Under the pieces are notes generated by a model. That model was not told where the DNA came from. It saw only the letters and a list, made by a program, of their open reading frames with translations, and did no database searches. Shown here in pieces: positions 7,652 through 23,398 of a stretch of DNA of 64,000 nt. Made by a program: the position numbers and the translations under genes. Position 1 is the stretch's first letter; every line of letters begins with the position of its first letter. Source of the stretch: a virus; IMG/VR virus record IMGVR_UViG_3300009128_000008, positions 20,696 through 84,695 of that record; one strand, written 5' to 3'.

Positions 7652-8662
7652 TTATGCGCCAATTACAGTGCTCTTGTTACCAGCAGATACGCCGCGAGGA
7701 TTGACAATACCAAGACCAATGATCTCGGAAACAACCCAGCCCAACTTAAGCTGCTTGGGTTCATCAGCAGGAAGAACCTCAATATCCTGTCGAACGGGCA
7801 TTACGCCTACGAACTCAGGATCGGCACAAGCAAATACTGTACCAGCAGGAACGATCTTGGAAACCATAAGATCGGCGCCCCAAATATGAGCATGCAGACC
7901 AGTCTGTAGAATCTCACGATGGGTCACAGGATCAATATCACCAACACCAACAGCACCACCACCGGACGACCAATTAAGGATGTCGGTGAATTCGTTGATA
8001 TTCATGAAGAACTTGGTCGTAACAAGGTCCCAACGGTCAACTTGCTGCTTTAGCTCGACAAGGTCGCGCCTTAGCATACCACCGTCAGCAATGTCTTGTA
8101 GGGTGTTCTCAGCCTGAGCAGCAGCATTAAGAGCCGCAAAACCATTAGCATCTTCTTGTGCCATGATTTCTTGACGGGCCTTCTGCACTGCACGGTCAAT
8201 AACGTTAAATCTTCGCCTCTTAACCTCAGCAATACGAACTGTTGGATTTGAGTAAATCTCAAACTCAGGAACAGTTACACGATCGCCAAATACGCGACTC
8301 TCTGGGCCAGTACCATTGCTAGAAATAACAACAGCAGCCACATCGATATCACGATCATAAACAGGGAGTGCACCCTGAGGTAGCGGATCAACAACTAGCG
8401 CCCTACGAAAGATACCTTGATAGTCAAGATTCCTACGAATTGGATTAGCCATAGCTTGAGCCAAAGCGATTTTGCCGTCATGACTCATAATAGCACGGGA
8501 AATTAGCTCATCACGTGCATCATCTGTCAGGCCTGGCTGACCACTTAGAGCTAGATTTGAAGGTGTGTTATCTTCAATAATTGAAGCGTACTTAGTTAGG
8601 GTAGTAAGTGCATCCTTAAGACTGGAAGCATTAATTTCTCCCTGGGTATTAAACATATTCAT
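7652..8662 (-). CDS. Major capsid protein (HK97 fold)
   Basis: 336 aa; MANPIRRNLDYQG..RRALVVDPLPQGALPVYDRD..RRFNVIDRAVQKARQEIMAQED and GWVVSEIIGLGIVNPRGV resemble large-phage HK97-type capsids. It follows a decoration-like gene, ends in a terminator, and protease, portal and terminase genes are in the same module. Confidence 0.85.
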   Translation of the reverse strand: MNMFNTQGEINASSLKDALTTLTKYASIIEDNTPSNLALSGQPGLTDDARDELISRAIMSHDGKIALAQAMANPIRRNLDYQGIFRRALVVDPLPQGALPVYDRDIDVAAVVISSNGTGPESRVFGDRVTVPEFEIYSNPTVRIAEVKRRRFNVIDRAVQKARQEIMAQEDANGFAALNAAAQAENTLQDIADGGMLRRDLVELKQQVDRWDLVTTKFFMNINEFTDILNWSSGGGAVGVGDIDPVTHREILQTGLHAHIWGADLMVSKIVPAGTVFACADPEFVGVMPVRQDIEVLPADEPKQLKLGWVVSEIIGLGIVNPRGVSAGNKSTVIGA

Positions 8663-8772: not shown

Positions 8773-9447
8773 TTATAGTTCAGGATGGAAATGAATCACA
8801 GCCTCAGTGAACAGCATCTGAGCAGCAGCAGCACCAGGCGGAGAGTTCAACGCAGAGGTTAGATACCGTGGGGTAGTAACCAAGCTTCCATTAGTCTGGA
8901 ACTCAACAAACCTAGCAACAACGACCGCCTCAAAAGCAGCGCCAACAGTGGGTGTCAATAGACCAGTGGCAGTAGCATATAGAGCATCATTACCAACAAG
9001 AGTGCCATTACCAGGTACAAGACCTGTTCCTGCAGTCTCATCGACAGCGTCTAATGTTACAGCGTATAGACCAGGCTTATCCCAAAGGGTTACCTTACCA
9101 CTACCAGTAGCAGTGTGCGGGCCTAACTGAGCACCAGTATTGACTACTTGACCAGCAATTCCGCCAACGACCTGACCAAACAAAGTACCATAATTTGTGG
9201 TCCCATCATCCGTTAGGAATAGAGGACGAACACCAGCGGTAAGATTGGTAGTAACAGCAGGACGAACCTGATTTACTACGCCAACATAGCCATCACCAAT
9301 ATCGGAAGTTGCAAGATCCACATTTGCAGCGGTGCTTACATAACCGAATTGAGCTACCTCACCACCAAGAATGGTTAGATAATCATTGTCGTAACCGTCG
9401 AACTGACCAAGCGGCTGGATTCCGGGTTGTAAAATTCTAAGAGCCAT
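8773..9447 (-). CDS. Probable capsid decoration/cement protein
   Basis: Immediately upstream of the capsid gene; Gly/Thr/Val-rich; SGKVTLW and ALYATATGLLT motifs are shared with 16958-17650. Confidence 0.6.
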   Translation of the reverse strand: MALRILQPGIQPLGQFDGYDNDYLTILGGEVAQFGYVSTAANVDLATSDIGDGYVGVVNQVRPAVTTNLTAGVRPLFLTDDGTTNYGTLFGQVVGGIAGQVVNTGAQLGPHTATGSGKVTLWDKPGLYAVTLDAVDETAGTGLVPGNGTLVGNDALYATATGLLTPTVGAAFEAVVVARFVEFQTNGSLVTTPRYLTSALNSPPGAAAAQMLFTEAVIHFHPEL

Positions 9448-9620: not shown

Positions 9621-10247
9621 CTATATCGAATTAGCGATAATTTGTAATTTTTCTTTCCTGGAAGCTTCTTTTTTACTAGATTTATATTTGGCGATCAGGC
9701 TTAGAGCGCTTTCCAAATCACCAGGGTTTGTTAAGAATTTTTTGCTAGAACTGATAATGGCGCCGGACATTTTGCCACTTACCTCACTAACTAGAATAGA
9801 TTCGACAGCCTTGGCAGCGCTATATAATTGCGGGTTCATCTTGCCGTCTATAGGACCACCATATGGAGCGCCAATAAGAGGATGAGAAGCGCCTAAAAAA
9901 GATTGCCAAGATTTAATTAAATTAGACGCGCTTGTGTCTTTTTTCTCATCTTTTTTCTTTTTATCGTCTGTTTCCTCGGGCTTCTCATCAACATCTGGTT
10001 TTTCTTCCGCCTCAAGCTCCTCCACCTTCTTTTTTACTTCATCAAGTTTCTTCTTTCTTTCTGGTGGTAGGATATATCTCAAATATGAAAAACTTTCCTC
10101 ATCATCTAGCGATTGTAAATCAAGCGGACTTGTGCTGGCTATAAAAGGCTCACGAGGACGAGAAAAATTCCTCTCGTCCGACATAACTACCGGCTTAAAA
10201 TAGGATCCATACTCCCAGCTGGATGGCATGTCTATTAATCCGCTCAT
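9621..10247 (-). CDS. Hypothetical head-module protein with a peptidoglycan-binding-like segment
   Basis: IKSWQSFLG..YGGPIDGKMNPQL resembles the PG_binding_1 Q..L...DG pattern. Confidence 0.45.
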   Translation of the reverse strand: MSGLIDMPSSWEYGSYFKPVVMSDERNFSRPREPFIASTSPLDLQSLDDEESFSYLRYILPPERKKKLDEVKKKVEELEAEEKPDVDEKPEETDDKKKKDEKKDTSASNLIKSWQSFLGASHPLIGAPYGGPIDGKMNPQLYSAAKAVESILVSEVSGKMSGAIISSSKKFLTNPGDLESALSLIAKYKSSKKEASRKEKLQIIANSI

Positions 10248-10259
10248 GTATTTGATTAC

Positions 10260-11465
10260 CTATACATACCGAAGATATGTGCGCTCTTTCTTTTTCTTTC
10301 CTTCTGTTGGGAAGCGCACATAAACTCCCTCTTCTTTTTCTTTAGTAACTTTTGGCGTCTTGCCCTCTAATGCGCTTTCTTGCCTCTTTAATACTTTATA
10401 CGAGGCTTTAATATCGGTCATCACATCTTCTTCATTGTTAAAATACTTAATCAACTCCTCGTGACTACTAATTTGCTTGGAATTTTCAGCTATAGCCTCA
10501 TTTAATGCCTCAAGAGCGTCTGTCACGTCTTCAACATCACTCTGTACAATAAACTCTTTAACTTTACGAAGCATCCTGTATATAGAGGTTTCCTTCGATC
10601 TATATTGTGTTTCCCTGAGCTGTATTAATTTAATAAATTTTGGAATAATCCTGCTAACATGCCGCGCTAATTTCTTATACGCCCTAAGCATTTTTACAGC
10701 ATCTTGTTTGTATAATACCCTTGCCTGTATTGCAGCATTACGAACATCCGCCGAAGTAACCCCCTCATCATCATCAACCTCGGGACCAGATCGAATCTTA
10801 ATGGACTTTACAGCTTCTGCAGCATCACGTAGCCTTGTTATACTGTTAACTAGCGGACGAAGATCGGGTTCCATTTGAGGATAATCATCAACCAACATAT
10901 CTGAGATTTCTTCTAGAGCAATTATGGCATTTTGTTCAACGCCTTGTACCAATGTTGTGTTAGAGAAAAGCTTTGTAAGACCTCCAACAGCAAACACAAC
11001 ACCAGCAACAATTCCCGCTATTGCTAATGGTGGCAAAGCTTCTTTAACCAATCTGCCAGAACAAGAATCAGCCAATGTCATTAAGTTTTCATTCTTGGTG
11101 CGATCTAGCATAAATGCACCCTTAACAAGTTCATCTACTAATTCTTTTTGCGCTTTTACATATCTGTGTTGAGTAAGCTTTCCATCATTAGGCTTTAAAG
11201 CAATATATGCCATCATGTCATGACGCTCTTTTAAATTCTCCACTAATGCATTGAAGCGATCATATGACGGAGCTACTACTACGGGTTCTGGATGAGCTTT
11301 GTCCAATATATCATCATCCTTTCCGTTTGGTTGTACACCATAAAGAGCTTCCACGGCAGAAAGATCCCGAGATTCATAACTGGGATTTGTTTCCTCTGCA
11401 GCTTCCTTTACTAATCCCTTCTCCTTAGCAATCTTGGTATATTCATCAAAAATTTCGCTATTCAT
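10260..11465 (-). CDS. Probable internal head/ejection protein with a hydrophobic segment
   Basis: Contains the AHP module and LVKEA twice; the second is followed by LPPLAIAGIVAGVVFAVGGL. Confidence 0.55.
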   Translation of the reverse strand: MNSEIFDEYTKIAKEKGLVKEAAEETNPSYESRDLSAVEALYGVQPNGKDDDILDKAHPEPVVVAPSYDRFNALVENLKERHDMMAYIALKPNDGKLTQHRYVKAQKELVDELVKGAFMLDRTKNENLMTLADSCSGRLVKEALPPLAIAGIVAGVVFAVGGLTKLFSNTTLVQGVEQNAIIALEEISDMLVDDYPQMEPDLRPLVNSITRLRDAAEAVKSIKIRSGPEVDDDEGVTSADVRNAAIQARVLYKQDAVKMLRAYKKLARHVSRIIPKFIKLIQLRETQYRSKETSIYRMLRKVKEFIVQSDVEDVTDALEALNEAIAENSKQISSHEELIKYFNNEEDVMTDIKASYKVLKRQESALEGKTPKVTKEKEEGVYVRFPTEGKKKKERTYLRYV

Positions 11466-12690
11466 TTTTACCCTCTGCAGATTTTTTATTCCTTATGGCT
11501 CTGCGTGCCGGTCCAGAAAACTTATCTACTATTTTTCTTATTCTTGTCTTTGGCGCATCAGCTGGACGATAATGTTTCGGTGGAATTACCAGTCTATTCG
11601 GCATTGCACTAGAATAATTCCTTTCGAAATCCCTAACTACACGCCGAAATGATGGGGACGACATTATAATATCATCATATCCCACCAAATCACGATATAT
11701 ATCTGTCGCCCAAACTAGCAACATATTCTCTACTGAGCCGCCCACTAATGGAACAACCCAATAACTACCACTAGAAACTGTCCCAGGTGCCGCCTTAGGA
11801 GTTGTTGTGGTCCTCCTTGTGGGTGTCCTTGCAGTTGCTGGAGCGGTATATGAAGCCGGCACAATAGTTTCTGTCGTTTCTCGTCTTGCGCTAGGTGTCT
11901 CCGGTTGCTCCTTTTTCCCTTTATCGCGGCCCATCAACCCTCTTAAAGCGCCTGCGCCAGCTATTAACCCGGCACCAATTAAAGCAGTTTTAAGAGTCCA
12001 TAATAACAGTCCGCCTCCAAACCACTTTAACAGACTGGCACCACGTGGTCTTTTAAATAAATTGCCAAATATTCGACCAATTACACCAACGTTTCCACCA
12101 AATCCCTTTCTCTTCGGAAATAAACCGGGAATATCTGGTGTTTGTTTGCGGCGACCAAAAAGAGCAAAAGACACTAATGGTGATGGATCGTCCAAGCTAT
12201 CTAACGAATCCTCGTCACAATATTTTCGCAGACCATAAAACATATCATTGCAAGCGGAACTACTTAATGCGCCAGCCTCAGATTGAATTACAGACTGCCC
12301 AATTGAAGATACCTCGGCGCTACTAATAGGTTTGCCACTTTCAATTTTGGGCTTTAACTTATCAACCATTTTGCCCAACAGCGCACCAAGATTAAACCCA
12401 AAAATCGAATCTAATAGCAATGAAACAATACCTAAAACAGGATTTATTCTAAATAATACAGTGGGAACTAGAAAATTAAGTACAGTCCCAGCAGTTCCAC
12501 CGCCACTTTCACCAACCTTTTCAGCAAAATGATTCTTAATAGACGATGCTATCCCGCCTAATCCTAGTTCACCGAAAATACCAGCACCTTTAATGATCTC
12601 GGCATCAGCTCTGGCCAATTTCTCAACCAAAATGGTATCTGCAATATACTGTAAATCATCTTTTCTTTGTATATTATTCATAGTATACAA
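11458..12690 (-). CDS. Probable internal head/ejection protein with membrane-like segments
   Basis: IIKGA-GIFGELGLGG; hydrophobic stretches VLNFLVPTVLFRINPVLGIVSLLL and WFGGGLLLWTLKTALIGAGLIAGAGAL. Confidence 0.55.
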   Translation of the reverse strand: MYTMNNIQRKDDLQYIADTILVEKLARADAEIIKGAGIFGELGLGGIASSIKNHFAEKVGESGGGTAGTVLNFLVPTVLFRINPVLGIVSLLLDSIFGFNLGALLGKMVDKLKPKIESGKPISSAEVSSIGQSVIQSEAGALSSSACNDMFYGLRKYCDEDSLDSLDDPSPLVSFALFGRRKQTPDIPGLFPKRKGFGGNVGVIGRIFGNLFKRPRGASLLKWFGGGLLLWTLKTALIGAGLIAGAGALRGLMGRDKGKKEQPETPSARRETTETIVPASYTAPATARTPTRRTTTTPKAAPGTVSSGSYWVVPLVGGSVENMLLVWATDIYRDLVGYDDIIMSSPSFRRVVRDFERNYSSAMPNRLVIPPKHYRPADAPKTRIRKIVDKFSGPARRAIRNKKSAEGKNE

Positions 12691-12699
12691 ATGCCTTAG

Positions 12700-15600
12700 T
12701 TATCTTCCGCCGCCTTTTTGATATATATCAGTTTTTACTTCCTGATACCTTTGCGCAATCATATCCAACCATTCGTTATAATACCAATACACACCAGGTT
12801 TTCCACCTTCGCCTTGTAGAATTCTCTTGCGTAAAGATCTTGGTACCATTCGTTCAAATTCAGTTTTAATTCTACGCAACTCTTCATACAATAAATCACA
12901 GAACTTCAAAAACTGGGCTGACGCAGTTTGTCCAGACCAATCTTGAGCCATCGCCTCCACCTCTCTAATGTTGCGAAGTAGTACCGGTCGTTTTAATTTT
13001 TTGCCCTTCTTTTCTGTGGCTACATAATAATCACCACCAGGACCACGCTCAACCTCCAATTTATACCCTAACTCTCGCGCTGCTCGTTCGCGCGCCCTAG
13101 GAGTAGCCCTTGCCCTTCCAATAATTTTTGAAACTAACTGTGGTCCCTCAGCGCCTACCCAGTCACCTAATGACAATATTGTCCTCTGATTTGTAGGAAT
13201 GCGTGGCCACCATTCAGTATCATTTAGATCTAATGTTTTCCAAATAGGAGATCTGTTTGGATCAAAATCGGGTCCTATACGTACATCACGCCCAACAATA
13301 TCTCGGCCGCCTACTCCTCGGTCTCTGCCAGTTCCACGGCCGGCGGGTACCCTGGCTCCACCAGGTCTTCCGGCGCCTCCAGGGCCAACTCCAGCTCCAG
13401 GAGCGGGTCGGGCAGAAATTATTAATATAACACTATTTCTCTGATCTGCCTTTGGGGCTTGCTCCGCCACAACGGTCGTCAGCTCGCCAAATAAAGCTGG
13501 AATCATCCCAGAAAGTATGCGAGCATTTTTTTGATATGTTGCCGCATCAACCTTATCCGCTCCACCTGGCAACAGACTCTTAACCGTCTCTATAAAAGAT
13601 TCTAATCTAGTTGGCTCTGCCATATACGCTGCTTCGAGCTGTTTATTCAAAAGGGCCAGAGCAAACATCCACTGATTAGATGTCAGACCAACCCCGGTAG
13701 GAGCAACATATGGCTCATCCTTCATATAAAGCCACTGACCATATGCATATACAAATCTGAATCCTTGAGGCTTCGCTGGCCATATGCTAGTGCGAGTGAC
13801 TGGGTTAATTCCTTTACGCTTCTCCTCTGGAGATTGTTCCAAACCCGGCTCGGCCCGCTGCTGCTCCTTAGTAATAGGAGTACGCGTTTCCCTCTTTCCA
13901 GCTTCATCACCATATTGGCGAATTACCCTTGTAACCAATCTTTCCTCATCCAGCTTATGGGCGGCCATCCAGCGCTTTACAATTCCGTGCTTCTCTAAAT
14001 ATAATTGCAGCGCAGATAAAGAAGCCAGATCTTGATTCGTAATTTTAACGTTAGGAGGTCCTTGAAGTTTAGACAGATCAACAACAACAGATATCAGCTG
14101 TGTTTTCCCTACATACTTCTTGCTCACAGCATAATTGACCGACTTATCCATAGCCTCTACAATCTTTTTGTTTGTAGGCGCGTACATCTTGGCAGATCTT
14201 ACATCATGTAAATACCCGCGGCCAGCAGGGCCGGGAGTAATAGTGCCTGATATTGTTGATGCTTTTGCCGCTGTTAATACATCATTCCATTTGCGCCTAA
14301 AAGACTCTATTTGCTCTAGTGCAAATGCTGTTTTCTTTCCCCACTTACCATCTGCTGGGCTTGTGCTTCTTGGCCCGGATGTTCCCATCTGAGACACAGC
14401 GGAAAACACACGATCTATCTCTGGTTTAGTAATTTTAACTTGCGCCAACACTCTCTGAGTATCGCCTTTGTTCAATGTATCTTTAAGTTTAAGCATGGAA
14501 GTTTGCATTTCCATTACCTTGTTAACTATAGGGATCTGAGCGGCACTAGGAGTTTTACCACTGGGTCCGCGAGGCCTAGGAGAGCCTGATGGAGGGGCAT
14601 CAAGAGGAGCTGGTACTGGTGGAACAGGATTTGCCTGCTTAACAATATCATCTAAAGCTGAATTAGCTCTGCGACGACGTGTTGGTGGTTTTGTTCCCTC
14701 ATTCCACTGTTTGGACCACGACAACACATCTTCTTGACTCATGCCGGCAAACTCAGGCCCCAAAGCGGAGATTGTATCAAAAAATTTCTTACTCTGATTT
14801 CCAGCTTTCACGGCAGCCATATAATTTATAGTTGCTTTATAATTAGTTAGTGTTGTTTCATAGTTTTTGGTACCTTCTTCATATCTGTCCAACAATCCTC
14901 TTAACCTAACTGCCGCCGAACTTAAATTATTATAAGTTTCGCGTGATATATCTATATAATAAGGCTTATCTGATGCCAAGTGTATATATGGTGTAAACTT
15001 TCTTATGGCAGCCGTAATCTTTGTAATTGCTTGCGCTATCATAGGGCCATATTTTACATAGCCCCACTCAAACCCCAAAAACTTTGCCAATCGATCAATC
15101 CGCCTTGTCCACCTTCCACCAACTTTAAACGTTGTTTCAAGTTTCTTTTTAACAGCCTGCAATAATGAAATCACAGCAGCAACAGATGCAGCAAATTCCT
15201 TCTTACCACTAGTGTTTATTTCTGGCGATTCAGAAATGGGGCCCATAGCGCTTGTAAACTTGGCGGCAATCTTTTTTAACTTGGCACTTGTCTTTTCATT
15301 TAATTCCTCACACGGCTTCCAAAATTTAGCATTAAACTCAGCAACCAAATAGTTGTAAATAGCAAGTGCAGCCGCATTTACTTGTTTTGTGTCAAGTCTA
15401 AACCAGGAATATAAATTATCCTCAGATTTTTCAGCGTCTCCTGGTAAAGGCGCCCAAACAGATTGGGCGTTATCTGCCCAAATATCATGGGCAGTATTTG
15501 GCGGAGAAACTAACGACCACGAAACATCGCCCTTCTGTCGAATTTTTAGAATGCTGGGCCCTAATACATCGCCGGGACCCCATTTGGTACCCCTCTTCTT

Positions 15601-16494
15601 TCCTGAACCAGGTTGAGATCCCCAAAAGAATTTAGATTGGCCAGTTTCATTTCCTATTGCAGCTAAGTGTTCGTAATTTCCTTTTAATTTATTAGCAATG
15701 CGCCGCGGACCTTGAGAAGGATGAAAGTCTCCTACAATATACTTATTATAAAGCGCCACATATTTGTTTAAATCTTCAGGAGACTGGCCGGTAGCTTTTG
15801 CAAAACTATCGCGCGCTTTTTGATCTTTCAATAAGGCTCTAGCATTCAATGTCCATATGGGCCAATTTAAACCTAAGGCGGAGAGAGCCCCAAAAACTAA
15901 GGGGCCAATCTCAGCATACGTATCTTCCAACTCGCCTGCAACAGAATCCATATCAACCGGTCCTGTTGGCATTTTTGGTGGTTCTTCTTTTTTAGGCTCC
16001 ACCGACATTTTCGGCTTGTCCGAAGGTAGGCGCCACTCTTTAGGCAGATTAGGGTAATCAGCAGTTTTCTCTAAATCCACGCCCAAAGCCACAGCGGCAG
16101 ATCGTATAGCATCATCAATTACCTCAGCATATTTACCAGTTGGTTTTTTATTTACAATGTCTAAAATCTTCTTATGAGCACTCTCTTCAGTCTCAACAAC
16201 ACCATATCCGCCCTGTGATGGAGCAACCTCAACATCACCATCAGGATGAGCGCTTTCTAACACATCCTCGCCATCTTCATCTATAGCGCGATACAAATGA
16301 GTTTCGGCCATTTTGAAAGTATGGATTTTGTCTTCAAGAGATTCAGCCTCTTTTTCAAAACCTTTCTCCCTCATTGCATTGGCCAAACGCACCATATCCG
16401 CAAACAAATCTTCAGTTGGCTCATACGATACACTATCTGATGCCTTTTTAACAACTTCCTTCAACTCTGCTTCTTTAATCATGTTTTTTTCCAT
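12700..16494 (-). CDS. Large (1264 aa) probable internal head/ejection protein
   Basis: N-terminal helical-hairpin and AHP modules, many KxA sites, Pro/Gly linkers and a DGKWGKKT peptidoglycan-binding-like motif. Confidence 0.6.
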   Translation of the reverse strand: MEKNMIKEAELKEVVKKASDSVSYEPTEDLFADMVRLANAMREKGFEKEAESLEDKIHTFKMAETHLYRAIDEDGEDVLESAHPDGDVEVAPSQGGYGVVETEESAHKKILDIVNKKPTGKYAEVIDDAIRSAAVALGVDLEKTADYPNLPKEWRLPSDKPKMSVEPKKEEPPKMPTGPVDMDSVAGELEDTYAEIGPLVFGALSALGLNWPIWTLNARALLKDQKARDSFAKATGQSPEDLNKYVALYNKYIVGDFHPSQGPRRIANKLKGNYEHLAAIGNETGQSKFFWGSQPGSGKKRGTKWGPGDVLGPSILKIRQKGDVSWSLVSPPNTAHDIWADNAQSVWAPLPGDAEKSEDNLYSWFRLDTKQVNAAALAIYNYLVAEFNAKFWKPCEELNEKTSAKLKKIAAKFTSAMGPISESPEINTSGKKEFAASVAAVISLLQAVKKKLETTFKVGGRWTRRIDRLAKFLGFEWGYVKYGPMIAQAITKITAAIRKFTPYIHLASDKPYYIDISRETYNNLSSAAVRLRGLLDRYEEGTKNYETTLTNYKATINYMAAVKAGNQSKKFFDTISALGPEFAGMSQEDVLSWSKQWNEGTKPPTRRRRANSALDDIVKQANPVPPVPAPLDAPPSGSPRPRGPSGKTPSAAQIPIVNKVMEMQTSMLKLKDTLNKGDTQRVLAQVKITKPEIDRVFSAVSQMGTSGPRSTSPADGKWGKKTAFALEQIESFRRKWNDVLTAAKASTISGTITPGPAGRGYLHDVRSAKMYAPTNKKIVEAMDKSVNYAVSKKYVGKTQLISVVVDLSKLQGPPNVKITNQDLASLSALQLYLEKHGIVKRWMAAHKLDEERLVTRVIRQYGDEAGKRETRTPITKEQQRAEPGLEQSPEEKRKGINPVTRTSIWPAKPQGFRFVYAYGQWLYMKDEPYVAPTGVGLTSNQWMFALALLNKQLEAAYMAEPTRLESFIETVKSLLPGGADKVDAATYQKNARILSGMIPALFGELTTVVAEQAPKADQRNSVILIISARPAPGAGVGPGGAGRPGGARVPAGRGTGRDRGVGGRDIVGRDVRIGPDFDPNRSPIWKTLDLNDTEWWPRIPTNQRTILSLGDWVGAEGPQLVSKIIGRARATPRARERAARELGYKLEVERGPGGDYYVATEKKGKKLKRPVLLRNIREVEAMAQDWSGQTASAQFLKFCDLLYEELRRIKTEFERMVPRSLRKRILQGEGGKPGVYWYYNEWLDMIAQRYQEVKTDIYQKGGGR

Positions 16495-16538
16495 TGCCGT
16501 TTTTTAAAGCTTTGGGTTGCTATTTATTGCTATTATGA

Positions 16539-16841
16539 TTATTCCTGATCCTCGTCCAGATCAAGTAACATCACGCCATCCACAAAAATAGGATTAACCT
16601 TCTCCCTATAACTAGTATCTGTGGCAAACTTCTCTTGCAAAGCCTTAAAAGCCACTCTCAATTTTGGATCACTCTTCACACGCCGTTCAAACTCATCCAA
16701 ATCACCCAATACATCATTAATATTCGGGGCTTCTGCTTTCTTCTGCTGCTTCTCTAGAGCCTCTCTTTTTAGCTCATTTTTAACATACTCCCTAAAGATT
16801 TCGGATGACATTGCTGCAGTCCAATCCATAATATTCTCCAT
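16539..16841 (-). CDS. Hypothetical head-module protein
   Basis: SSEIFREYVK resembles NSEIFDEYTK at the N-terminus of 10260-11465. Confidence 0.6.
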   Translation of the reverse strand: MENIMDWTAAMSSEIFREYVKNELKREALEKQQKKAEAPNINDVLGDLDEFERRVKSDPKLRVAFKALQEKFATDTSYREKVNPIFVDGVMLLDLDEDQE

Positions 16842-16957
16842 AATCTACATACAGGTATACTGGTCTATAATAATATTAAGTTATGCGCTCATTATTTATA
16901 AATGCGCGCTTTATTTAGAGAAAAACTAGCCTATTCCCTTATTATCTACATGCTGAT

Positions 16958-17650
16958 TTATAGCCACAAACACTCTATGCTGGAATGAACACTACTAGGC
17001 GGAGCCGTTACAAGAGCGATAGCTGGATAGTCCGTGCTGATCTGTCTTGTAGTTAATAGGCCGCTCTCATTCACAAAAAGAGGAGCATTTAATGGATATC
17101 TTTGGTTGCTTTCAAATTGGTCCGTTTGAAAAATCATCCTCATAAACCACACTGTCATTCTAGAACTAGCTAATGTAGAATCATCGCCAGGAACATTTGG
17201 AACCTGATAAGTATAATTAACTACTGTTCTTATGGCGTCCATAGTAGAGCCACCTGTTTGACTAAAATTTAGCTCCGTTCCAGCCAAAAATGTTACTACT
17301 CCATTTCGCGGTATAAGCTCAACATCTACCGGATTGGACATAAACGAAACCGCCATAACATTTGGATTTCTAAGCTCAACTTTAACGTCCACCGGAGTAA
17401 CCAATCTACCATGAGACATAACTCCTTGAGCCGGAGCTATAACCACCTCATCTATTGCGACCGATGAAAATGCATTCTTTTTAATATCATCAATTACACC
17501 AATTGGAGCAGATCCATCGCTAGTGCCACAAACTACCTGATTACCATGTAAGGTAAGCTGTGCAATCATTCCCGGTTCAAATTCTGCGCTGGGGTCTACT
17601 GGAAAGGAAAAAGGCAAGGCATTTCCAGCCTGTACAATCCTAAGTGTCAT
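16958..17650 (-). CDS. Second decoration/cement-like protein (paralog of 8773-9447)
   Basis: MTLRIVQAG vs MALRILQPG; SSRMTVW vs SGKVTLW; PLFVNESGLLT vs ALYATATGLLT. Confidence 0.55.
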   Translation of the reverse strand: MTLRIVQAGNALPFSFPVDPSAEFEPGMIAQLTLHGNQVVCGTSDGSAPIGVIDDIKKNAFSSVAIDEVVIAPAQGVMSHGRLVTPVDVKVELRNPNVMAVSFMSNPVDVELIPRNGVVTFLAGTELNFSQTGGSTMDAIRTVVNYTYQVPNVPGDDSTLASSRMTVWFMRMIFQTDQFESNQRYPLNAPLFVNESGLLTTRQISTDYPAIALVTAPPSSVHSSIECLWL

Positions 17651-17711
17651 CTTATCACCTCTTAAATATTTGGAGTTATTCTCTCATATATATAACAGAA
17701 TACAGCAAGAG

Positions 17712-17749
17712 AAAAAGAAAAAGCCGGCCATTAAAAAAATAGCCGGCTT
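17712..17749 (-). terminator. Intrinsic terminator
   Basis: AAGCCGGC..GCCGGCTT inverted repeat followed by a T-rich tract on the minus strand. Confidence 0.75.
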
Positions 17750-17768
17750 AAGCTAATATATTTATTAT

Positions 17769-18116
17769 TTACTCAATTTCTTCTTCTTGTGTAAACCTTT
17801 TGTCGTCTTCGTCATAAGTGTTATCTACATCATCTACATTAAATACCCAGCCTTTATTCTTTAAATTTTCAAGCATCTTTTCGCTGGTCAATCCCTCAGT
17901 AGCCGGGTCATCAAGCTTTTTAGAAACCATTAAAATTAACTGTGCTTCTTTTTTTAAGTTGTTCTCATTTAGTATATTAGCAGCTTTATTAAGATAAGAT
18001 AGTATTTTGTATTTAGTATTATTTTTACTATGAGCTTCTTTTTTATTTTGAAGCTTAATTAATTCGCTTTCAAGATCGGAAAGGAATTCATTTTCTGACT
18101 GCTTATTAAAAAACAT
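17769..18116 (-). CDS. Small acidic head-module protein (helical-hairpin motif family)
   Basis: YLNKAANILNENNLKKEAQLI. Confidence 0.65.
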   Translation of the reverse strand: MFFNKQSENEFLSDLESELIKLQNKKEAHSKNNTKYKILSYLNKAANILNENNLKKEAQLILMVSKKLDDPATEGLTSEKMLENLKNKGWVFNVDDVDNTYDEDDKRFTQEEEIE

Positions 18117-18388
18117 TATTTATCCATTTTCGAGGATAATATTTCCATTACATTTGTAATAGCTTCTGATGCCATACTCTTATTTTCTATCCGTCCTAAT
18201 AAATCAGCCGCCTTATTCAAATATTCCATGGCAAACAGAACGGCATAATGGTCCATTACTTCTTGTGGGACATTGGCTGGAGCATCTTCTTCCTCCAATC
18301 CAACCACTGATTCAGTTTCTGGTTCGTCCTCAGTCTGTCCTAAAATTTCAGCCATTTCTTTGGCTATATCATATTCTTCTTCCGGCAT
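18116..18388 (-). CDS. Small acidic head-module protein (helical-hairpin motif family)
   Basis: YLNKAADLLGRIENKSMASEAI; translationally coupled to its neighbours. Confidence 0.65.
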   Translation of the reverse strand: MPEEEYDIAKEMAEILGQTEDEPETESVVGLEEEDAPANVPQEVMDHYAVLFAMEYLNKAADLLGRIENKSMASEAITNVMEILSSKMDK

Positions 18389-19294
18389 TTATTTTTCATC
18401 CTCAAATGATGATTCTGTTGATGGTTGTGCTGATGATTTTGTCACAAATTTTTCTCTAAACTTTTCTAACCATTTTCGCGCTTCTTGTTGGGCGCGTTCT
18501 TTCTTAAATTCTTTTTCGAACTCGGCTTCTTCCTCTGCTTCAAGCTGTTCCTGGTATTCTTGTTCTTCTGCTTCTTCCGCTTCTTCTTGTTCCAACATCT
18601 GAGTGAGATCTTGAACCAATTTATCTAACTCCTCTTCTTCTGGATCAAATTCGCGCTCTATTTCTTCTGTAGTTTCCTCTACCTCAACATCAACATCAGG
18701 ATCATCGGGATCGTCACCCTCATAAGACTCAAATAAGCTACCCGGTTCATCTTCTGCTAAAAATTTATCTAATTCTCTTTCGGCATCTTGTGCTTCGCCA
18801 ATATCATAAACATCAACCATATACTCTGCTAAATCTTCAGTTGGCGTATCACCCTCCGGTTCAAAAGCATATTCTTCTGGTTTTACCCCGACTCCCCTAA
18901 GAAGATCTTCGAACTTGCTTTTCCTTTCGCCTCTTTCAACGCTTTTGAGCTGCTCCAATAATTCCTGCTCTGTTTCTTCCGGCATTATATCTGGCAAACC
19001 AGCCAATCCCGGGTCATCCTCAGCGGCCTCAGCCAACATACCTTGAACACCATTTAGCACCAACGCAGATGCCTTTTCTAAACCAATATTATCCAAATCT
19101 GAAGATACACTAATAAATAATTCGGCTAGCTTACTTACAGCAGCTGCAAATTTTTCCTCTACACTGCACTCATCTGGAACAAGGGGGTCCTCACTCTCTT
19201 CCGCTTTTTTATAAAACATCTGAGTATGTGAGTCACTAGCAATTATTTTGCTCATCTCAGAGGCAACTGCTTCACTAACGCTATATTTTGACAT
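18389..19294 (-). CDS. Very acidic head-module protein (helical-hairpin motif family)
   Basis: FISVSSDLDNIGLEKASALV followed by a Glu/Asp-rich tail. Confidence 0.65.
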   Translation of the reverse strand: MSKYSVSEAVASEMSKIIASDSHTQMFYKKAEESEDPLVPDECSVEEKFAAAVSKLAELFISVSSDLDNIGLEKASALVLNGVQGMLAEAAEDDPGLAGLPDIMPEETEQELLEQLKSVERGERKSKFEDLLRGVGVKPEEYAFEPEGDTPTEDLAEYMVDVYDIGEAQDAERELDKFLAEDEPGSLFESYEGDDPDDPDVDVEVEETTEEIEREFDPEEEELDKLVQDLTQMLEQEEAEEAEEQEYQEQLEAEEEAEFEKEFKKERAQQEARKWLEKFREKFVTKSSAQPSTESSFEDEK

Positions 19295-19302
19295 AATTAT
19301 CC

Positions 19303-19620
19303 CTATTCTTGCGCTTTGTCGCTCTCTGACACAACAATATCGGCTTTCTCTTCTTCCACAGGTCGCTCAATACTCATTATGTCTTTGGCGGCCAATAGTA
19401 CATTAGCAGCGCTCTTCGGCAGTCCTATGCTATCTAAAATTTCGGATGCCTCTATTAATTTAGTACAGGCATCCGTTAATATCTCTTCCTTAGTTTTCTC
19501 TTTGGCAGCGGCTTTCTTTACTTTGGGCTGTTCAAAAATTTTATTGTAATTCTCATCACTTAATATATCGATCATAGACTGGGCTAACATATCGCCCACA
19601 TTTTTATCGTTTGAACTCAT
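19303..19620 (-). CDS. Small head-module protein (helical-hairpin motif family)
   Basis: LIEASEILDSIGLPKSAANV. Confidence 0.65.
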   Translation of the reverse strand: MSSNDKNVGDMLAQSMIDILSDENYNKIFEQPKVKKAAAKEKTKEEILTDACTKLIEASEILDSIGLPKSAANVLLAAKDIMSIERPVEEEKADIVVSESDKAQE

Positions 19621-19642
19621 TGAATCCCCATTGATACGGCAA

Positions 19643-19664
19643 GGGGCAAGTAAAAACTTGCCCC
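19643..19664 (-). terminator. Hairpin after the protease/scaffold gene (weak terminator or stability element)
   Basis: GGGGCAAGT-AAAA-ACTTGCCCC is a perfect 9-bp stem with only a short U-tract. Confidence 0.55.
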
Positions 19665-19696
19665 AGTTAATATTATATTTTTGGGTTTGTTTTCAA

Positions 19697-22600
19697 TTAT
19701 ACTTTTCTGCCAGCCCAAATCTTATTAAGCTCTGTCTGAAGATCAGATGCAGCCGCTTCAGGCTCGGGTAGTGTAATTGAATCGCCGGTGCCCATCATAC
19801 CAACTTGCGGTATGGAGGCTTGCTTTTTCATAGGAGTCTGTGTAGATACCCATCGCTTCATGCTATTAAATGCCTCGTCATTAAAGCTCATAAGCTCTTT
19901 GACTTGCTCATTTACAGCAGTACGAACTAGCATTCCACGGTCTACCATGTCATGTGCTAATTCATAAGCTCTGGCAATCTTTACCTTGTATGATTCCTGT
20001 TTTTCCGCAAGCTTCTGGGACTCATGCTCCTTCGTAAGCTCAGATGCAAATTGAGAACATTCAGCATCTCCCTCGCCATAATACTGTTTCCAGTAACTAA
20101 CAGCCTCGGCATCCAAACCATGAGCAACCAGTCCGTCAAAATCCTTCTCAGGATCAATCTTGCCGGCGGTTACCATCTGCTGAATCTCTTCGGCCATCTT
20201 ACGGACTCTAGGAGGCGCCGTGGCAACATCCATTACCTTGTCATGAGCCTCTTCTAATGTCTCAACCTTGCCTAATTCACCAGTAGGTGCAACATCCAGT
20301 TGGGTTGTGACACCACCGCCGGGATGTGCTTCATCTAATACATTAGAAAATGTCAATCCTTGTTGTGCCATTTTTGATAATTCCTCTCTATATGCTACGC
20401 GCCCTTCCTTTGTTGTTAGGTCAAACTTTTCACTTGCGCCAGTCATTTTTGCCAAATCATCTGGAGTGGGACCCTCTACCTTTAAACTGCCATCTGGACC
20501 AAGCGTCGCTGCAGTTGCTGCATTGTCATCATCATCTGCTCCAAAGCCCTTGCCTACCATTGGATATACTTCTTTTGGTTTATATTCAAGTTTTGCCGGG
20601 CGTTCTGGCGTTGGTCCAACATCGATTCCGCCCAATGGATATGCGGTTGTGCTCTCAACTGGCTCAGCTGGCGCAGCTTCATCCTCTTCAAGCGCCCCAT
20701 AAAATTCAGCCGAACCCGGAGCATTTACTGGCGCTTCTAATTCAGCATCAACTTCCTTCTCAATTTCTTTAAGAAACTCTGGCGAAGGCGTAATTACATC
20801 TTCCTCTAACACCACATCAGCATCGGCAACATCAACATCGGCAGCATCAGCTGTGTCAGCAGCATCAGCAGCATCAGCAGCATCAGCAGTAGCGCATTCA
20901 CACTTATCATCGCCACACTCTTCGCAGGCGTCTTCAGCTTTCTTCTTCAGCTGCTCTTTTGTCTGCTTAGATTTCTTGGTTAGCATTTCTGCTCCTCGGG
21001 CGTACTTGACAAATGCTTCCATCAGCTTATAACAATCGGCAATAGTTGATTTGGCATCATCGCAAGCGTCCTTGACCAAAGTGTTTACAGAGCTAGCGTC
21101 TTTCTCGTCTAGCTTCTTCTCATTCTTGTAAATATGCTCGGCCAAACGCAACTCTTCAATATGCTCTGCCATATCAGCGCCGACCTTCTTCATACCTACA
21201 ACCAGAGACTTTCCTAGTTTCTTATGCATTTTAACCATCGCGCCAACAGGTGGTAATGCTCCTTCACCAGGACCTTCACCTTCAGCCTCGACTTCTTCTG
21301 CTATTCCGCCAAACTCATCTAGCTCTTCACCCTCTTCTAACAGGGCTTCAACAGCTTCCCGGACATCAGAAACGTTATTTTCTAGTTCGTTAAGAAGACC
21401 TGGCAGCTCTTCCTTGGGATCGCCAGTTCCGCCTTCATCAGGAACAGGTTCTCCTTCAGGCTCAAGTGCTTCAGGAGCTGCGCCTAATTCCTCAGGTGCA
21501 ACAGGCTCTTCTGCAGTAGCAGGTGCTGGTGGTGCAGGCGGTGGAGTTAATTGTGCACTCTTTAGCATTGCATCTGCTTTCTCAAACCCTTCAGACCTCA
21601 ACACGTCCAAAATTTTACGGCCATATTTTTCAGTTGCCACAAAATCGTAAAAAGCTTCTACTTTGCCGTCAGTGATCTCTTGGACAGTTGAGCTGAGAAT
21701 AAGCTTGTCATCAGCATATACCTGCCAACGACTATTTGCCGGATCCTCAGTTCCGTCTGATTTGGCCGCCTTAATAAATTTGGCGGTCAATTTGGCTCGA
21801 AGAAGCATCTTTTTACGAGCCTCATCGTCACCATATAGTCCTTCCACATCACCAACATCAGGAAAAGGAGCCTCTCCTACCATCTGCTTATCTTCCTTAT
21901 CGCGGGTAGTTTGATAGTCCTCTTTAGGATACGTTGGCTTTCCTGGGGTGGGTTCATTACCCTCTCCACCACCTTGGAAGTAGGCCTTGCGAGTCTTAAG
22001 CGCTTCTTTGGCTTTTTCCACCGCAGCCTGACGACGCATTGCCCGCTCTTCTTCCTCAGCTAAACGTTGCAATCGCTTTTTGCGCTCTACTTCAGATTCG
22101 CCAGCACTGTCAGGTCCGGGAGCCATCCCGTCGACAGGACCAGTATCCATCTGACCCACCATCTGTTTATCCTCATTATCACGGGTGCCCTGATAATCTT
22201 CTTTGGGATACTTTGGTGCGCCAGGTGTAGGCTCATTTACTCCACCACCACCTTGAAAATAAGCTTTCTTTTCAGTCATTTTACCCTCGTTTTGATTTTG
22301 TGACAACAAACTATCTACGTCATTTTGTAATTTGTTTAAACTTGTATGAATGCCATTAACGACACTAGCAAACTTTCCTAATTCTACATCTGTTGAGGCG
22401 TCTTTTTCTTCTTTCGTCTCTATTGGCGCCTCGCAAACATCATCAGCTTCTTGTTTTTCTTGCGACATCTCTTCACCTTCTTCGGCTTCTTCCACTGTTT
22501 CCGCCTTTTGTTCAAGTGCCTCAAGCTTTTCACAAGCTCGCTCTAAATCTTTTTTAATTTCAGCTACTGCTTCAGGATCAACTAATTCGTTCATATCGGC

Positions 22601-23398
22601 CAACTTTGAAATAAGTTCTTCTTTGGAATCTACATACTGCGCAATACTGTGTGCTGCAGCAACTATATGTCTAATTTTTGCCTTACCATCCGCTCCGCTT
22701 ACCACTATTGATAATTCGATTGGGTTAAGATCGCAATTTATTTCCCCATAACAACTCTTCTGTCTCATATGGGGGCAAAAATCATTTTCTGTTCGCGCTA
22801 CTTTGCCACATTCGGAACAAATTGCTCGTCCAACAGCAGTTCCCATAGAAACTGATGTAGCATAGCCAGTTGAAACTTTTCTAGCCAAATCTGGATAGTT
22901 TACCTTGTCAAGAGCACATAAGGCAATAATTCTTTTCTTGGGATAATCATAATAAGTATCAACAATAACACCACGGACCATATCCACAGAACTTGATTTA
23001 TGATCCAGACAAAGCGGTCGTCCTATCCATTTCTTATAAGCCTTAAGTAATTCCTCTTCTGGAAATATATCATTATTAGAATTCTTATATGGCTGCATAT
23101 TAGGATCTGAACAAACCCACTTCCATGAATCGCCCTTCTTTTCCCAATGGGCGTTTATCTCTTCGCCATTAGCATCTTTCTTAATAGTTCCGTCGTCATT
23201 TAGCAATACAGATTCGGCCGCATGCATCATAATGGCGGAAAAATATAAAAAGTCTTTCGCCCTAGGAGCGATCACTTTTAAATCGGCCGCAATCTTCTCG
23301 AACCTCTCCAAAATAGCAGGATTAGACATAACGCTTTCCTGCGATTGAATCGCGTCCGGTGTGATAGTAACGGCTTCTCCTAATTTGATTATAGTCAT
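19697..23398 (-). CDS. Prohead maturation protease fused to a long scaffold/core region
   Basis: N-terminal domain has PLCLDH...GVIVD...SVSMGT (His/Ser motifs of phage prohead serine proteases) with a CSECG..CPH insert. About 950 aa of acidic, coiled-coil scaffold-like sequence follows. Confidence 0.75.
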   Translation of the reverse strand: MTIIKLGEAVTITPDAIQSQESVMSNPAILERFEKIAADLKVIAPRAKDFLYFSAIMMHAAESVLLNDDGTIKKDANGEEINAHWEKKGDSWKWVCSDPNMQPYKNSNNDIFPEEELLKAYKKWIGRPLCLDHKSSSVDMVRGVIVDTYYDYPKKRIIALCALDKVNYPDLARKVSTGYATSVSMGTAVGRAICSECGKVARTENDFCPHMRQKSCYGEINCDLNPIELSIVVSGADGKAKIRHIVAAAHSIAQYVDSKEELISKLADMNELVDPEAVAEIKKDLERACEKLEALEQKAETVEEAEEGEEMSQEKQEADDVCEAPIETKEEKDASTDVELGKFASVVNGIHTSLNKLQNDVDSLLSQNQNEGKMTEKKAYFQGGGGVNEPTPGAPKYPKEDYQGTRDNEDKQMVGQMDTGPVDGMAPGPDSAGESEVERKKRLQRLAEEEERAMRRQAAVEKAKEALKTRKAYFQGGGEGNEPTPGKPTYPKEDYQTTRDKEDKQMVGEAPFPDVGDVEGLYGDDEARKKMLLRAKLTAKFIKAAKSDGTEDPANSRWQVYADDKLILSSTVQEITDGKVEAFYDFVATEKYGRKILDVLRSEGFEKADAMLKSAQLTPPPAPPAPATAEEPVAPEELGAAPEALEPEGEPVPDEGGTGDPKEELPGLLNELENNVSDVREAVEALLEEGEELDEFGGIAEEVEAEGEGPGEGALPPVGAMVKMHKKLGKSLVVGMKKVGADMAEHIEELRLAEHIYKNEKKLDEKDASSVNTLVKDACDDAKSTIADCYKLMEAFVKYARGAEMLTKKSKQTKEQLKKKAEDACEECGDDKCECATADAADAADAADTADAADVDVADADVVLEEDVITPSPEFLKEIEKEVDAELEAPVNAPGSAEFYGALEEDEAAPAEPVESTTAYPLGGIDVGPTPERPAKLEYKPKEVYPMVGKGFGADDDDNAATAATLGPDGSLKVEGPTPDDLAKMTGASEKFDLTTKEGRVAYREELSKMAQQGLTFSNVLDEAHPGGGVTTQLDVAPTGELGKVETLEEAHDKVMDVATAPPRVRKMAEEIQQMVTAGKIDPEKDFDGLVAHGLDAEAVSYWKQYYGEGDAECSQFASELTKEHESQKLAEKQESYKVKIARAYELAHDMVDRGMLVRTAVNEQVKELMSFNDEAFNSMKRWVSTQTPMKKQASIPQVGMMGTGDSITLPEPEAAASDLQTELNKIWAGRKV
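20841..20888. repeat. 9-nt tandem repeat encoding (ADA)n in the scaffold
   Basis: GCAGCATCA units; the protein reads TADAADAADAADTADAAD. Confidence 0.8.
21830..22270 (-). repeat. Duplicated ~50-aa module in the scaffold
   Basis: KAYFQGGG..NEPTPG.P.YPKEDYQ.TRD.EDKQMVG occurs twice, 93 codons apart. Confidence 0.9.

Follow-up and report, generated by a model that had tools for sequence, protein, structure and literature searches.

A conserved module shared by a protease-scaffold and two head-region proteins in a clade of uncultured huge phages

Here we analysed a stretch of 64,000 nucleotides (the window; positions 20,696 to 84,695 of IMG/VR virus record IMGVR_UViG_3300009128_000008) within a viral contig of 84,695 bases, whose genes lie nearly all on the minus strand. 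A first-pass annotation of the window had noticed a module of ~45 residues, AHP..VAP..VE..H, in a protease-scaffold and in two otherwise unrelated head proteins, and had read it as a removable docking tag that co-assembles cargo with the scaffold core. Our results confirm the module as a genuine unit, strongly conserved and not annotated before. The sections below describe the three genes that carry it, its conservation and distribution, the candidate cleavage sites around it, and the roles that it might play in head assembly.

Three genes that share one module

The module lies in three open reading frames (ORFs), termed ORF A, ORF B and ORF C; their relatives are referred to as A-type, B-type and scaffold (C-type) proteins.

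10260-11465, minus strand: ORF A, 401 amino acids
11175..11324, minus strand: module copy in ORF A, residues 48-97 (regular-expression and profile matches; in 92 A-type proteins A57, H58 and D69 never vary)
12700-16494, minus strand: ORF B, 1264 amino acids
16129..16278, minus strand: module copy in ORF B, residues 73-122 (regular expressions; profile score of 81 bits, E=5.1e-24 in its own contig)
19697-23398, minus strand: ORF C, the protease-scaffold, 1233 amino acids
20198-20356, minus strand: module copy in ORF C, residues 1015-1067 (regular expressions)
20156..20374, minus strand: module unit in ORF C, residues 1009-1081, comprising K-M-A, module, K-M-A and a helix (BLASTP; profile of A- and B-type copies, E=4.2e-7; shuffles; six-copy alignment)

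We scanned the window in all six reading frames with three regular expressions for the motif. Each returned exactly three matches on the minus strand and none on the plus strand, at the places where the module had first been noticed. On the whole 84,695-base contig a tighter pattern again gave three matches. A looser one gave a fourth, on the plus strand, which runs across stop codons and is therefore no gene. ORFs A, B and C are separate genes at least 2.4 kb apart, and their module copies are 25-40% identical. The module starts at residue 48 of ORF A, at residue 73 of ORF B and at residue 1015 of the 1233 residues of ORF C, with a median start of 64 in the top 150 relatives. Its placement in ORFs A and B is thus tag-like, near the N-terminus, where propeptides and targeting sequences sit.

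When the whole proteins were compared pairwise by BLASTP, the best segment was the module in each case (E=7e-6 for B with C, 0.008 for A with C and 0.016 for A with B), and the next-best segments had E-values of 0.3 or worse. Next, 23 A- and B-type copies, without any scaffold copy, were made into a profile, with which we searched the contig of the window and four contigs of 359-481 kb. This profile gave three matches per genome at E<=10 in all five genomes, and the third was always the protease-scaffold, with E-values of 4.2e-7, 6.0e-4, 6.5e-4, 0.02 and 0.02. ORF C scored 20.2 bits against it. The highest score among 2000 whole-protein shuffles of ORF C was 7.3 bits, and among 2000 shuffles within 50-residue blocks it was 7.7 bits, so that none of 4000 shuffles in total reached the real score and the alignment is significant by this control. 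A direct comparison of the A-type with the C-type profile by hhalign was weak on its own (E=0.023, probability 2%).

The shared unit is larger than the ~45 residues first proposed and spans ~50-65 amino acids. Between ORFs A and B the BLASTP similarity extends over residues 4-117 of A and 29-133 of B, about 115 amino acids from the N-termini, and covers a short helical hairpin, a linker and the module, ending at K.P.GK. Between ORFs B and C it joins residues 77-135 to residues 1019-1081 over 64 columns, running through the K-x-A after the module into the next helix, and the A-type and C-type profiles likewise align past the downstream K-x-A into the next helix. Outside the module ORF C does look unrelated to A and B, as had been stated, but for A against B this is only partly true. 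ORFs A and B divide into the following parts.

11037..11465, minus strand: conserved N-terminal region of ORF A, residues 1-143 (92-sequence alignment, AlphaFold)
10260..11036, minus strand: variable "cargo" part of ORF A, with a hydrophobic segment and then a helical bundle (AlphaFold; no Pfam or PHROG family)
16090..16494, minus strand: N-terminal region of ORF B, residues 1-135 (BLASTP with A and C; layout conserved in B-type proteins)
12700..16089, minus strand: variable "cargo" part of ORF B, ~1130 amino acids (in a BLAST component of 8 long proteins; no Pfam or PHROG family)

Residues 1-143 of ORF A consist of a helical hairpin, the module and two more helices, and end with K-E-A before the hydrophobic segment; residues 1-135 of ORF B contain K-x-A sites, a helical hairpin, K-M-A, the module, K-Y-A and a helix. 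In the alignment of 92 A-type proteins all 29 columns conserved at 90% or more fall within residues 3-141 of 401, and none falls in the remaining 260. We grouped the parts that follow the module in 137 library proteins and the three window proteins by BLAST (12 of 149 proteins, with fewer than 120 residues after the module, were dropped) and obtained 25 components: one of 72 (A-type), one of 24, one of 8 (long B-type proteins, including that of the window), others of 7, 5, 3, 2 and 2, and 17 singletons. Other B-type proteins of 360-620 amino acids sit in components different from that of ORF B. The pattern, as read from these alignments, is a conserved N-terminal region ahead of fast-changing or unrelated downstream parts.

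Some relatives carry the module more than once. A B-type protein from a related contig (P0001, encoded at 7605-8975 of contig L097) has three tandem modules, each ending in K-[KR]-A, and two further proteins (P0002 and P0007) have two copies each. P0001 is only 455 amino acids long, and frames of 380, 481 and 311 amino acids lie between it and the A-type gene of L097.

Conservation and distribution

Residue conservation was counted over 228 distinct copies of the module. The residues of Ala-His-Pro are conserved at 98%, 98% and 97%, the Glu of "VE" at 98% and the Val preceding it at 82%, and the end region has a Lys at 91% and a Gly at 89%. The second His position is His in 47% and Gln in 47% of the copies, and "VAP" keeps its Pro in 51%. 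The two His residues, VAP and VE had been called invariant; this is true of the three copies in the window, but across the family only AHP and the Glu hold, and the invariants first listed are a trait of one genome. Of six scaffold copies, three have neither AHP nor either His; they retain T.LD..P...L..VE...E and the ending A..P..VR. We also observed an "ENENEGQ" variant in A that accompanies the loss of AHP from the scaffold; this is a comparison of three genomes with three and is inseparable from shared descent.

ORF A was modelled with AlphaFold. A single-sequence model (mean predicted local distance difference test score, pLDDT, of 44.6) was discarded, and the model from the 92-sequence alignment (mean pLDDT of 74) was used. 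In it the module, at pLDDT ~60-74, has two helices, a short one at residues 53-57 and another at 78-90, joined by an extended stretch at 58-77. Two more helices occupy residues 100-140 (pLDDT 70-84), most of residues 1-143 score 57-84, and residues 170-340 form a helical bundle mostly at 85-98. Foldseek of the model against the PDB gave generic helical bundles and nothing at E<=0.001, and a search of the ESM Atlas with residues 1-145 gave no usable feature hit, only structure rows with a template modelling score below 0.5, drawn from a low-confidence Atlas model. The suggestion that the module might be folded thus finds only moderate model confidence, which fits a segment that would fold against a partner.

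The major capsid protein served as the marker of the head-gene region and as the query with which related IMG/VR loci were gathered.

7652..8662, minus strand: major capsid protein, 336 amino acids (PHROG 2522, E=3.7e-76; phage G gp27)

Residues 45-326 of this protein are 54% identical to gp27 of Bacillus phage G, the nearest among named phages. Relatives are encoded in at least 391 IMG/VR stretches, and the best 80 are 79-85% identical and lie on contigs of up to 481 kb. Hence, the window belongs to a phage of a large uncultured clade of huge phages, of which phage G is a distant cultured cousin. A profile hidden Markov model built from the three window copies, run on these metagenomic phage loci as had been proposed, found the module in 74 stretches at E<=0.1 (three being the seeds), in A- and B-type relatives encoded upstream of the capsid gene.

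The module occurs in exactly three genes in all seven related contigs searched with profiles, whole or across the head-gene region: the contig of the window, five others of 268-481 kb, and L097. The L097 capsid protein is 71% identical, and gene order is conserved there. No fourth module gene appeared in these seven up to E=1 or E=10. Across them the frames are ~380-450 amino acids (A-type), ~370-1270 amino acids (B-type) and 1160-1344 amino acids (protease-scaffold) long. No module match at E<=10 appeared in three huge phages taken as outgroup, namely phage G, LR745208.1 and Virus Rctr197k, an empty answer that is weak evidence. Among 50,697 GenBank phage records, tblastn with ORF A found no match at E<=1e-3. 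In a representative library of 1.84 billion proteins, a 29-copy profile matched 1558 at E<=1e-3, of which 457 passed E<=1e-10. One of its top 150 hits (P0052, an 1181-amino-acid repeat protein) was a false positive from repeated partial matches and was excluded from later counts. A word-indexed search found 639 relatives, several of those listed being on contigs of 340-498 kb; 120 listed relatives had no Pfam domain and no name other than "hypothetical protein" or a gene descriptor. The module, ORF A and ORF B gave only chance-level rows below the cut-offs of Pfam, PHROGs and NCBIfam, with no PHROG family for A or B, and a literature search returned no account of the module or of head assembly in this clade.

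The protease-scaffold, candidate cleavage sites and neighbouring head genes

Two further features of ORF C bear on its identity.

22643..23296, minus strand: prohead protease domain of ORF C, residues ~35-252 (tblastn, PHROG 18299, NCBIfam NF045541)
19700..20155, minus strand: conserved C-terminal domain of ORF C, after the module (6-copy alignment)

The protease domain is 31% identical to gp19 of phage G by tblastn (E=4e-20), and it matches PHROG 18299, "head maturation protease" (E=2.1e-14), and, weakly, NF045541, a protease/capsid fusion family (E=5.8e-7, 28.5 bits against a cut-off of 525). It has no Pfam match at E<=0.01, and PDB sequences gave only weak zinc-finger matches (E about 0.6). 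On these matches it is a candidate HK97-type (S78) prohead protease. Beyond it lie a long Ala/Glu/Pro-rich region and the conserved C-terminal domain, and with this layout ORF C reads as a protease-scaffold fusion that probably serves as the scaffold. In the C-terminal halves of six scaffold proteins the invariant columns are densest between the module and the C-terminus; by analogy with other scaffolding proteins, this domain may bind the coat. The protease domain also contains a C-x2-C-x10-C-x-H motif (window 22769-22819, ORF C residues 194-210), conserved at residue 204 of the L097 scaffold and at residue 199 of the gp19 frame of phage G, which may be a zinc-binding insertion in the prohead protease.

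K-x-A sites flank the module in all three window proteins, as had been reported. In ORF B, KMA ends 11 residues ahead of the module and KYA stands at its end; in ORF C, one KMA lies just before the module and another just after it; and in ORF A, as read from the translation, KEA ends 26 residues ahead of the module and KGA begins 18 residues past it. The flanks are conserved in the family. Counted in 146 proteins (three of 149 were dropped, their module lying too close to an end), the density of K-x-A is 3.1 per 100 residues in the module flanks and 0.88 elsewhere in the same proteins, a 3.5-fold difference. The motif occurs within 22 residues downstream of the module in 113 of the 146 and within 20 residues upstream in 69. 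Each type has its own arrangement. A-type proteins have [KR]-Y-A about four residues past the module; of 92 sequences, 54 have K-x-A there and 66 have [KR]-x-A. Their most conserved K-x-A is at reference residue 143, before the hydrophobic segment, in 77 of 92. B-type proteins have Y-K-x-A about ten residues ahead of the module and V-K-x-A about ten past it, and scaffold proteins have K-[LM]-A ahead of it and R-K-[EM]-A immediately after it. We regard K-x-A as the leading candidate for the site of the prohead protease. This last K-x-A (11037-11045) and the hydrophobic segment directly after it, LPPLAIAGIVAGVVFAVGG in the window, lie within ORF A residues 141-168; a putative cut at this K-x-A of the A-type proteins would bare a hydrophobic N-terminus, like that of membrane-active ejection proteins.

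The capsid protein of the window has an N-terminal extension of ~44 residues (8530-8662, residues 1-44), which gp27 of phage G lacks and which is probably a short propeptide. In a small sample (14 N-termini caught by pattern, 10 distinct), the first 27 residues contain K-[DE]-A in 9 of 10 and K-Y-A in 10 of 10. The extension also has a conserved I-[IL]-E.

We compared 19 head-region proteins of the window with the first 45 kb of phage G by BLASTP. Matches were confined to the protease domain, the portal protein (gene at 30419-32278) and the capsid protein. Phage G has no detectable relatives of ORF A or ORF B in this comparison and is therefore no experimental proxy for them. Two products of phage G genes located between those for protease and capsid, the muramidase gp22 and the small membrane protein gp25, were detected in virions (PMC12484599), which fits head-internal products from this genomic position. 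Neither has a detectable relationship to ORF A or ORF B by BLASTP within the same 45 kb.

We noted several features of neighbouring genes. Proteins of 224 (8773-9447) and 230 (16958-17650) amino acids share the start M.LRI.Q.G, and their equivalents in L097 are 44% and 51% identical. They looked like paralogues by eye, an idea that we dropped at a BLASTP E-value above 1; by position, one of them probably matches the decoration protein gp26 of phage G. A 208-amino-acid protein (9621-10247) contains "ASHPLIGAP", resembling AHP...AP; the module profiles do not match it at E<=10, and the likeness is probably a coincidence. Four consecutive small acidic proteins adjoining the scaffold gene (17769-19620) show, by eye, a helical-hairpin element with the pattern L..A..L...G..KEA..L. 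The element recurs ahead of the AHP module at residues 4-26 of ORF A and 29-55 of ORF B, and it is kept in A- and B-type relatives.

Possible roles and known counterparts

On balance we put forward, at even strength for and against, that the module is the core of a removable co-assembly region that brings A and B into the head and is then cut off. On this proposal A and B, whose genes lie between those of the scaffold and the capsid protein, would each begin with a pro-region of ~115-145 amino acids with the module at its core. The module is homologous to the segment of the protease-scaffold just ahead of its conserved C-terminal domain, and by carrying a copy of this segment A and B would make the scaffold's own contact inside the prohead. 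The partner in this contact could be the scaffold, the inner face of the capsid or another copy of the module. The shared contact would load A and B into the head with the scaffold core. The fused prohead protease would then cut around the module, with K-x-A as the leading candidate site, and free mature A and B, which may remain inside the head in the role of internal or ejection proteins. The docking tag first suggested thus keeps its foundation, a conserved, separately encoded unit common to the scaffold and to two proteins of the head-gene region, and loses the second-His and VAP invariants, a metal site being unlikely. The 25 components found after the module fit a portable tag on variable cargo. 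The proposal also draws on the confinement of the module to three head genes, on a tag better conserved than what follows it, on the tandem copies, on the conserved flanking K-x-A sites and on the two conserved K-x-A sites at the capsid N-terminus.

Several observations weigh against this proposal. The clade has no cultured member, and phage G, its cultured relative, has no module in the profile search. That A and B are virion proteins is suggested by gene position alone. AHP is lost from three of six scaffold copies and kept in 98% of all copies, so the scaffold and cargo copies may have differing jobs; the proposal and the protease-docking alternative considered next explain this loss equally well. 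In A and B the module lies some way in from the N-terminus, and since the A-type conserved region reaches 45 residues past the module, the 45-residue module may not be the functional unit. The model confidence for the module is moderate. Over whole A-type proteins K-x-A is modestly enriched, with 4.9 sites observed and 3.3 expected per protein. Finally, the module contains [GA]-x-[VIF]-E, with the Glu present in 98% of copies, which is an alternative candidate for a cut of the T4 or phiKZ type; a cut there would destroy the module rather than excise it.

The module could instead be an exosite on which the prohead protease docks, ensuring that A, B and the scaffold are processed, with no role in loading. 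This would account for the conserved K-x-A sites that always bracket the module and for the tandem copies of P0001 parted by K-[KR]-A. It also accommodates the missing AHP: protease and scaffold form one polypeptide, and the scaffold copy would therefore act in cis under weaker constraint, whereas the copies in A and B, which retain AHP, would act in trans. We nevertheless consider a docking cassette unlikely. The capsid N-terminus has conserved K-x-A and no module, and if K-x-A is the site, cutting would not depend on the module. We know of no exosite in the known prohead proteases. Those of T4, phiKZ and SPN3US are described as recognising short motifs (PMC10052503).

A second alternative is that A and B are themselves components of the scaffold core that arose by duplication of the scaffold segment, the module self-associating and the proteins perhaps being degraded with the scaffold. 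The module, the K-x-A and the next helix are homologous between the scaffold and A/B, the hairpin element seen by eye is reused in A, B and the four small acidic proteins, and tandem module copies exist, all of which would suit a building block. We think this quite improbable, as ORF A beyond its conserved region has a hydrophobic segment and a helical bundle predicted with confidence, ORF B is 1264 amino acids long, and the hypervariable downstream parts are more like host-facing proteins than a conserved structural core.

Very improbable is a folded mini-domain in which the two His residues, possibly with the Glu, hold a metal ion that stabilises the tag. Metal binding had been raised as a possibility, and both His residues and the Glu are indeed invariant in the three window copies, and the first His is present in 98% of the 228 copies; but with the second His in only 47% (Gln in another 47%) and both missing from three of six scaffold copies, a two-His site is unlikely, the module has no Cys and no additional His ligands, and AlphaFold predicts, with moderate confidence, two helices (the first of them short) linked by an extended stretch. 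A chance or compositional resemblance among three Asp/Glu/Ala-rich segments, to which the weak pairwise E-values of two of the three pairs and the hhalign result might point, has next to no probability, being refuted already by the shuffle control and by the search with the profile of A- and B-type copies, whose sole other match in each of five genomes of up to 481 kb was the protease-scaffold, and opposed as well by the 457 cluster representatives at E<=1e-10.

A bolder form of the co-assembly proposal can be stated, which is tentative and which we would sooner doubt than rely on. The module would serve very large capsids as a portable, self-contained domain for loading, through which scaffold and cargo zip together or compete for one site in the capsid interior. 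Any protein fused behind the region of ~65-145 amino acids would be packaged and freed by cuts at the flanking K-x-A, and the number of modules (one to three in tandem) would set the amount of cargo. If true, this would be the first sequence-defined cargo-loading code for heads of the megaphage class, and a natural instance of one docking domain being shared between a phage scaffold and its cargo, to be compared with encapsulin loading peptides; a portable module might also provide a protein-loading tag for large engineered capsids. Outside T4 and the phiKZ group, little is known of how huge phages load specific proteins into heads with room for hundreds of kilobases of DNA, and almost no megaphage is in culture; the module offers a concrete handle on head loading. 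It marks candidate internal or ejection proteins in unannotated huge-phage contigs, with 1558 cluster representatives. The present analysis also corrects the definition of the motif and makes a two-His metal site unlikely.

Among known systems, the capsid-targeting sequence of T4 is ~10-19 residues long and ends at L/I-x-E; according to Mullaney and Black it is reportedly portable. It is N-terminal, stands on proteins loaded into the prohead core (IPI-III and Alt) and is removed by the prohead protease, much as is proposed for the module of A and B. Compared by description, the module differs in being a unit of 50-65 amino acids inside a putative pro-region of 115-145 amino acids, in lying away from the very start of the protein, in its K-x-A flanks and in its presence in the scaffold as well. 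With this length, these flanks and an internal [GA]-x-V-E, it is not a short T4-type peptide ending at L/I-x-E.

Encapsulin cargo-loading peptides are short and conserved, occur on unrelated cargo and dock inside a shell of the HK97 fold. They differ from the module in being ~10 residues long and usually C-terminal, in not being removed, and in having no scaffold or protease. In herpesvirus UL26/UL26.5, lambda C/Nu3, P2 gpO and Mu I/Z, the scaffold has a fused protease, and shared scaffold sequence takes a second protein into the procapsid; the herpesvirus assemblin cuts after Ala, resembling K-x-A. ORF C is of the UL26 or P2 gpO kind, with an N-terminal protease domain fused to a long putative scaffold region. 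In the herpesvirus, lambda, P2 and Mu systems the sharing comes from nested in-frame genes, whereas here it involves three separate genes with diverged copies.

A targeting role has been described for the T4 propeptides (PMC10052503). The same source reports that phiKZ-like giants (SPN3US gp53/gp54 and others) have N-terminal propeptides of 111-254 amino acids, cut several times, on head-internal proteins, and that paralogues share similarity in their propeptides, whose role is left open and is possibly targeting (PMC10052503). The long N-terminal region of A-type proteins resembles these in length, its conserved stretch of 141-143 amino acids fitting the range of ~110-250. The differences are a cleavage motif of A-x-E, a protease that is not fused to the scaffold and, in the part of the source available, no description of a module shared with the scaffold (PMC10052503). 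ORFs A and B do not belong to the phiKZ-like head protein families, PHROGs assigning them to none. The closest precedents are thus the capsid-targeting sequence of T4 and the long propeptides of the phiKZ-like phages, and the module may represent a variation on propeptide-mediated head loading.

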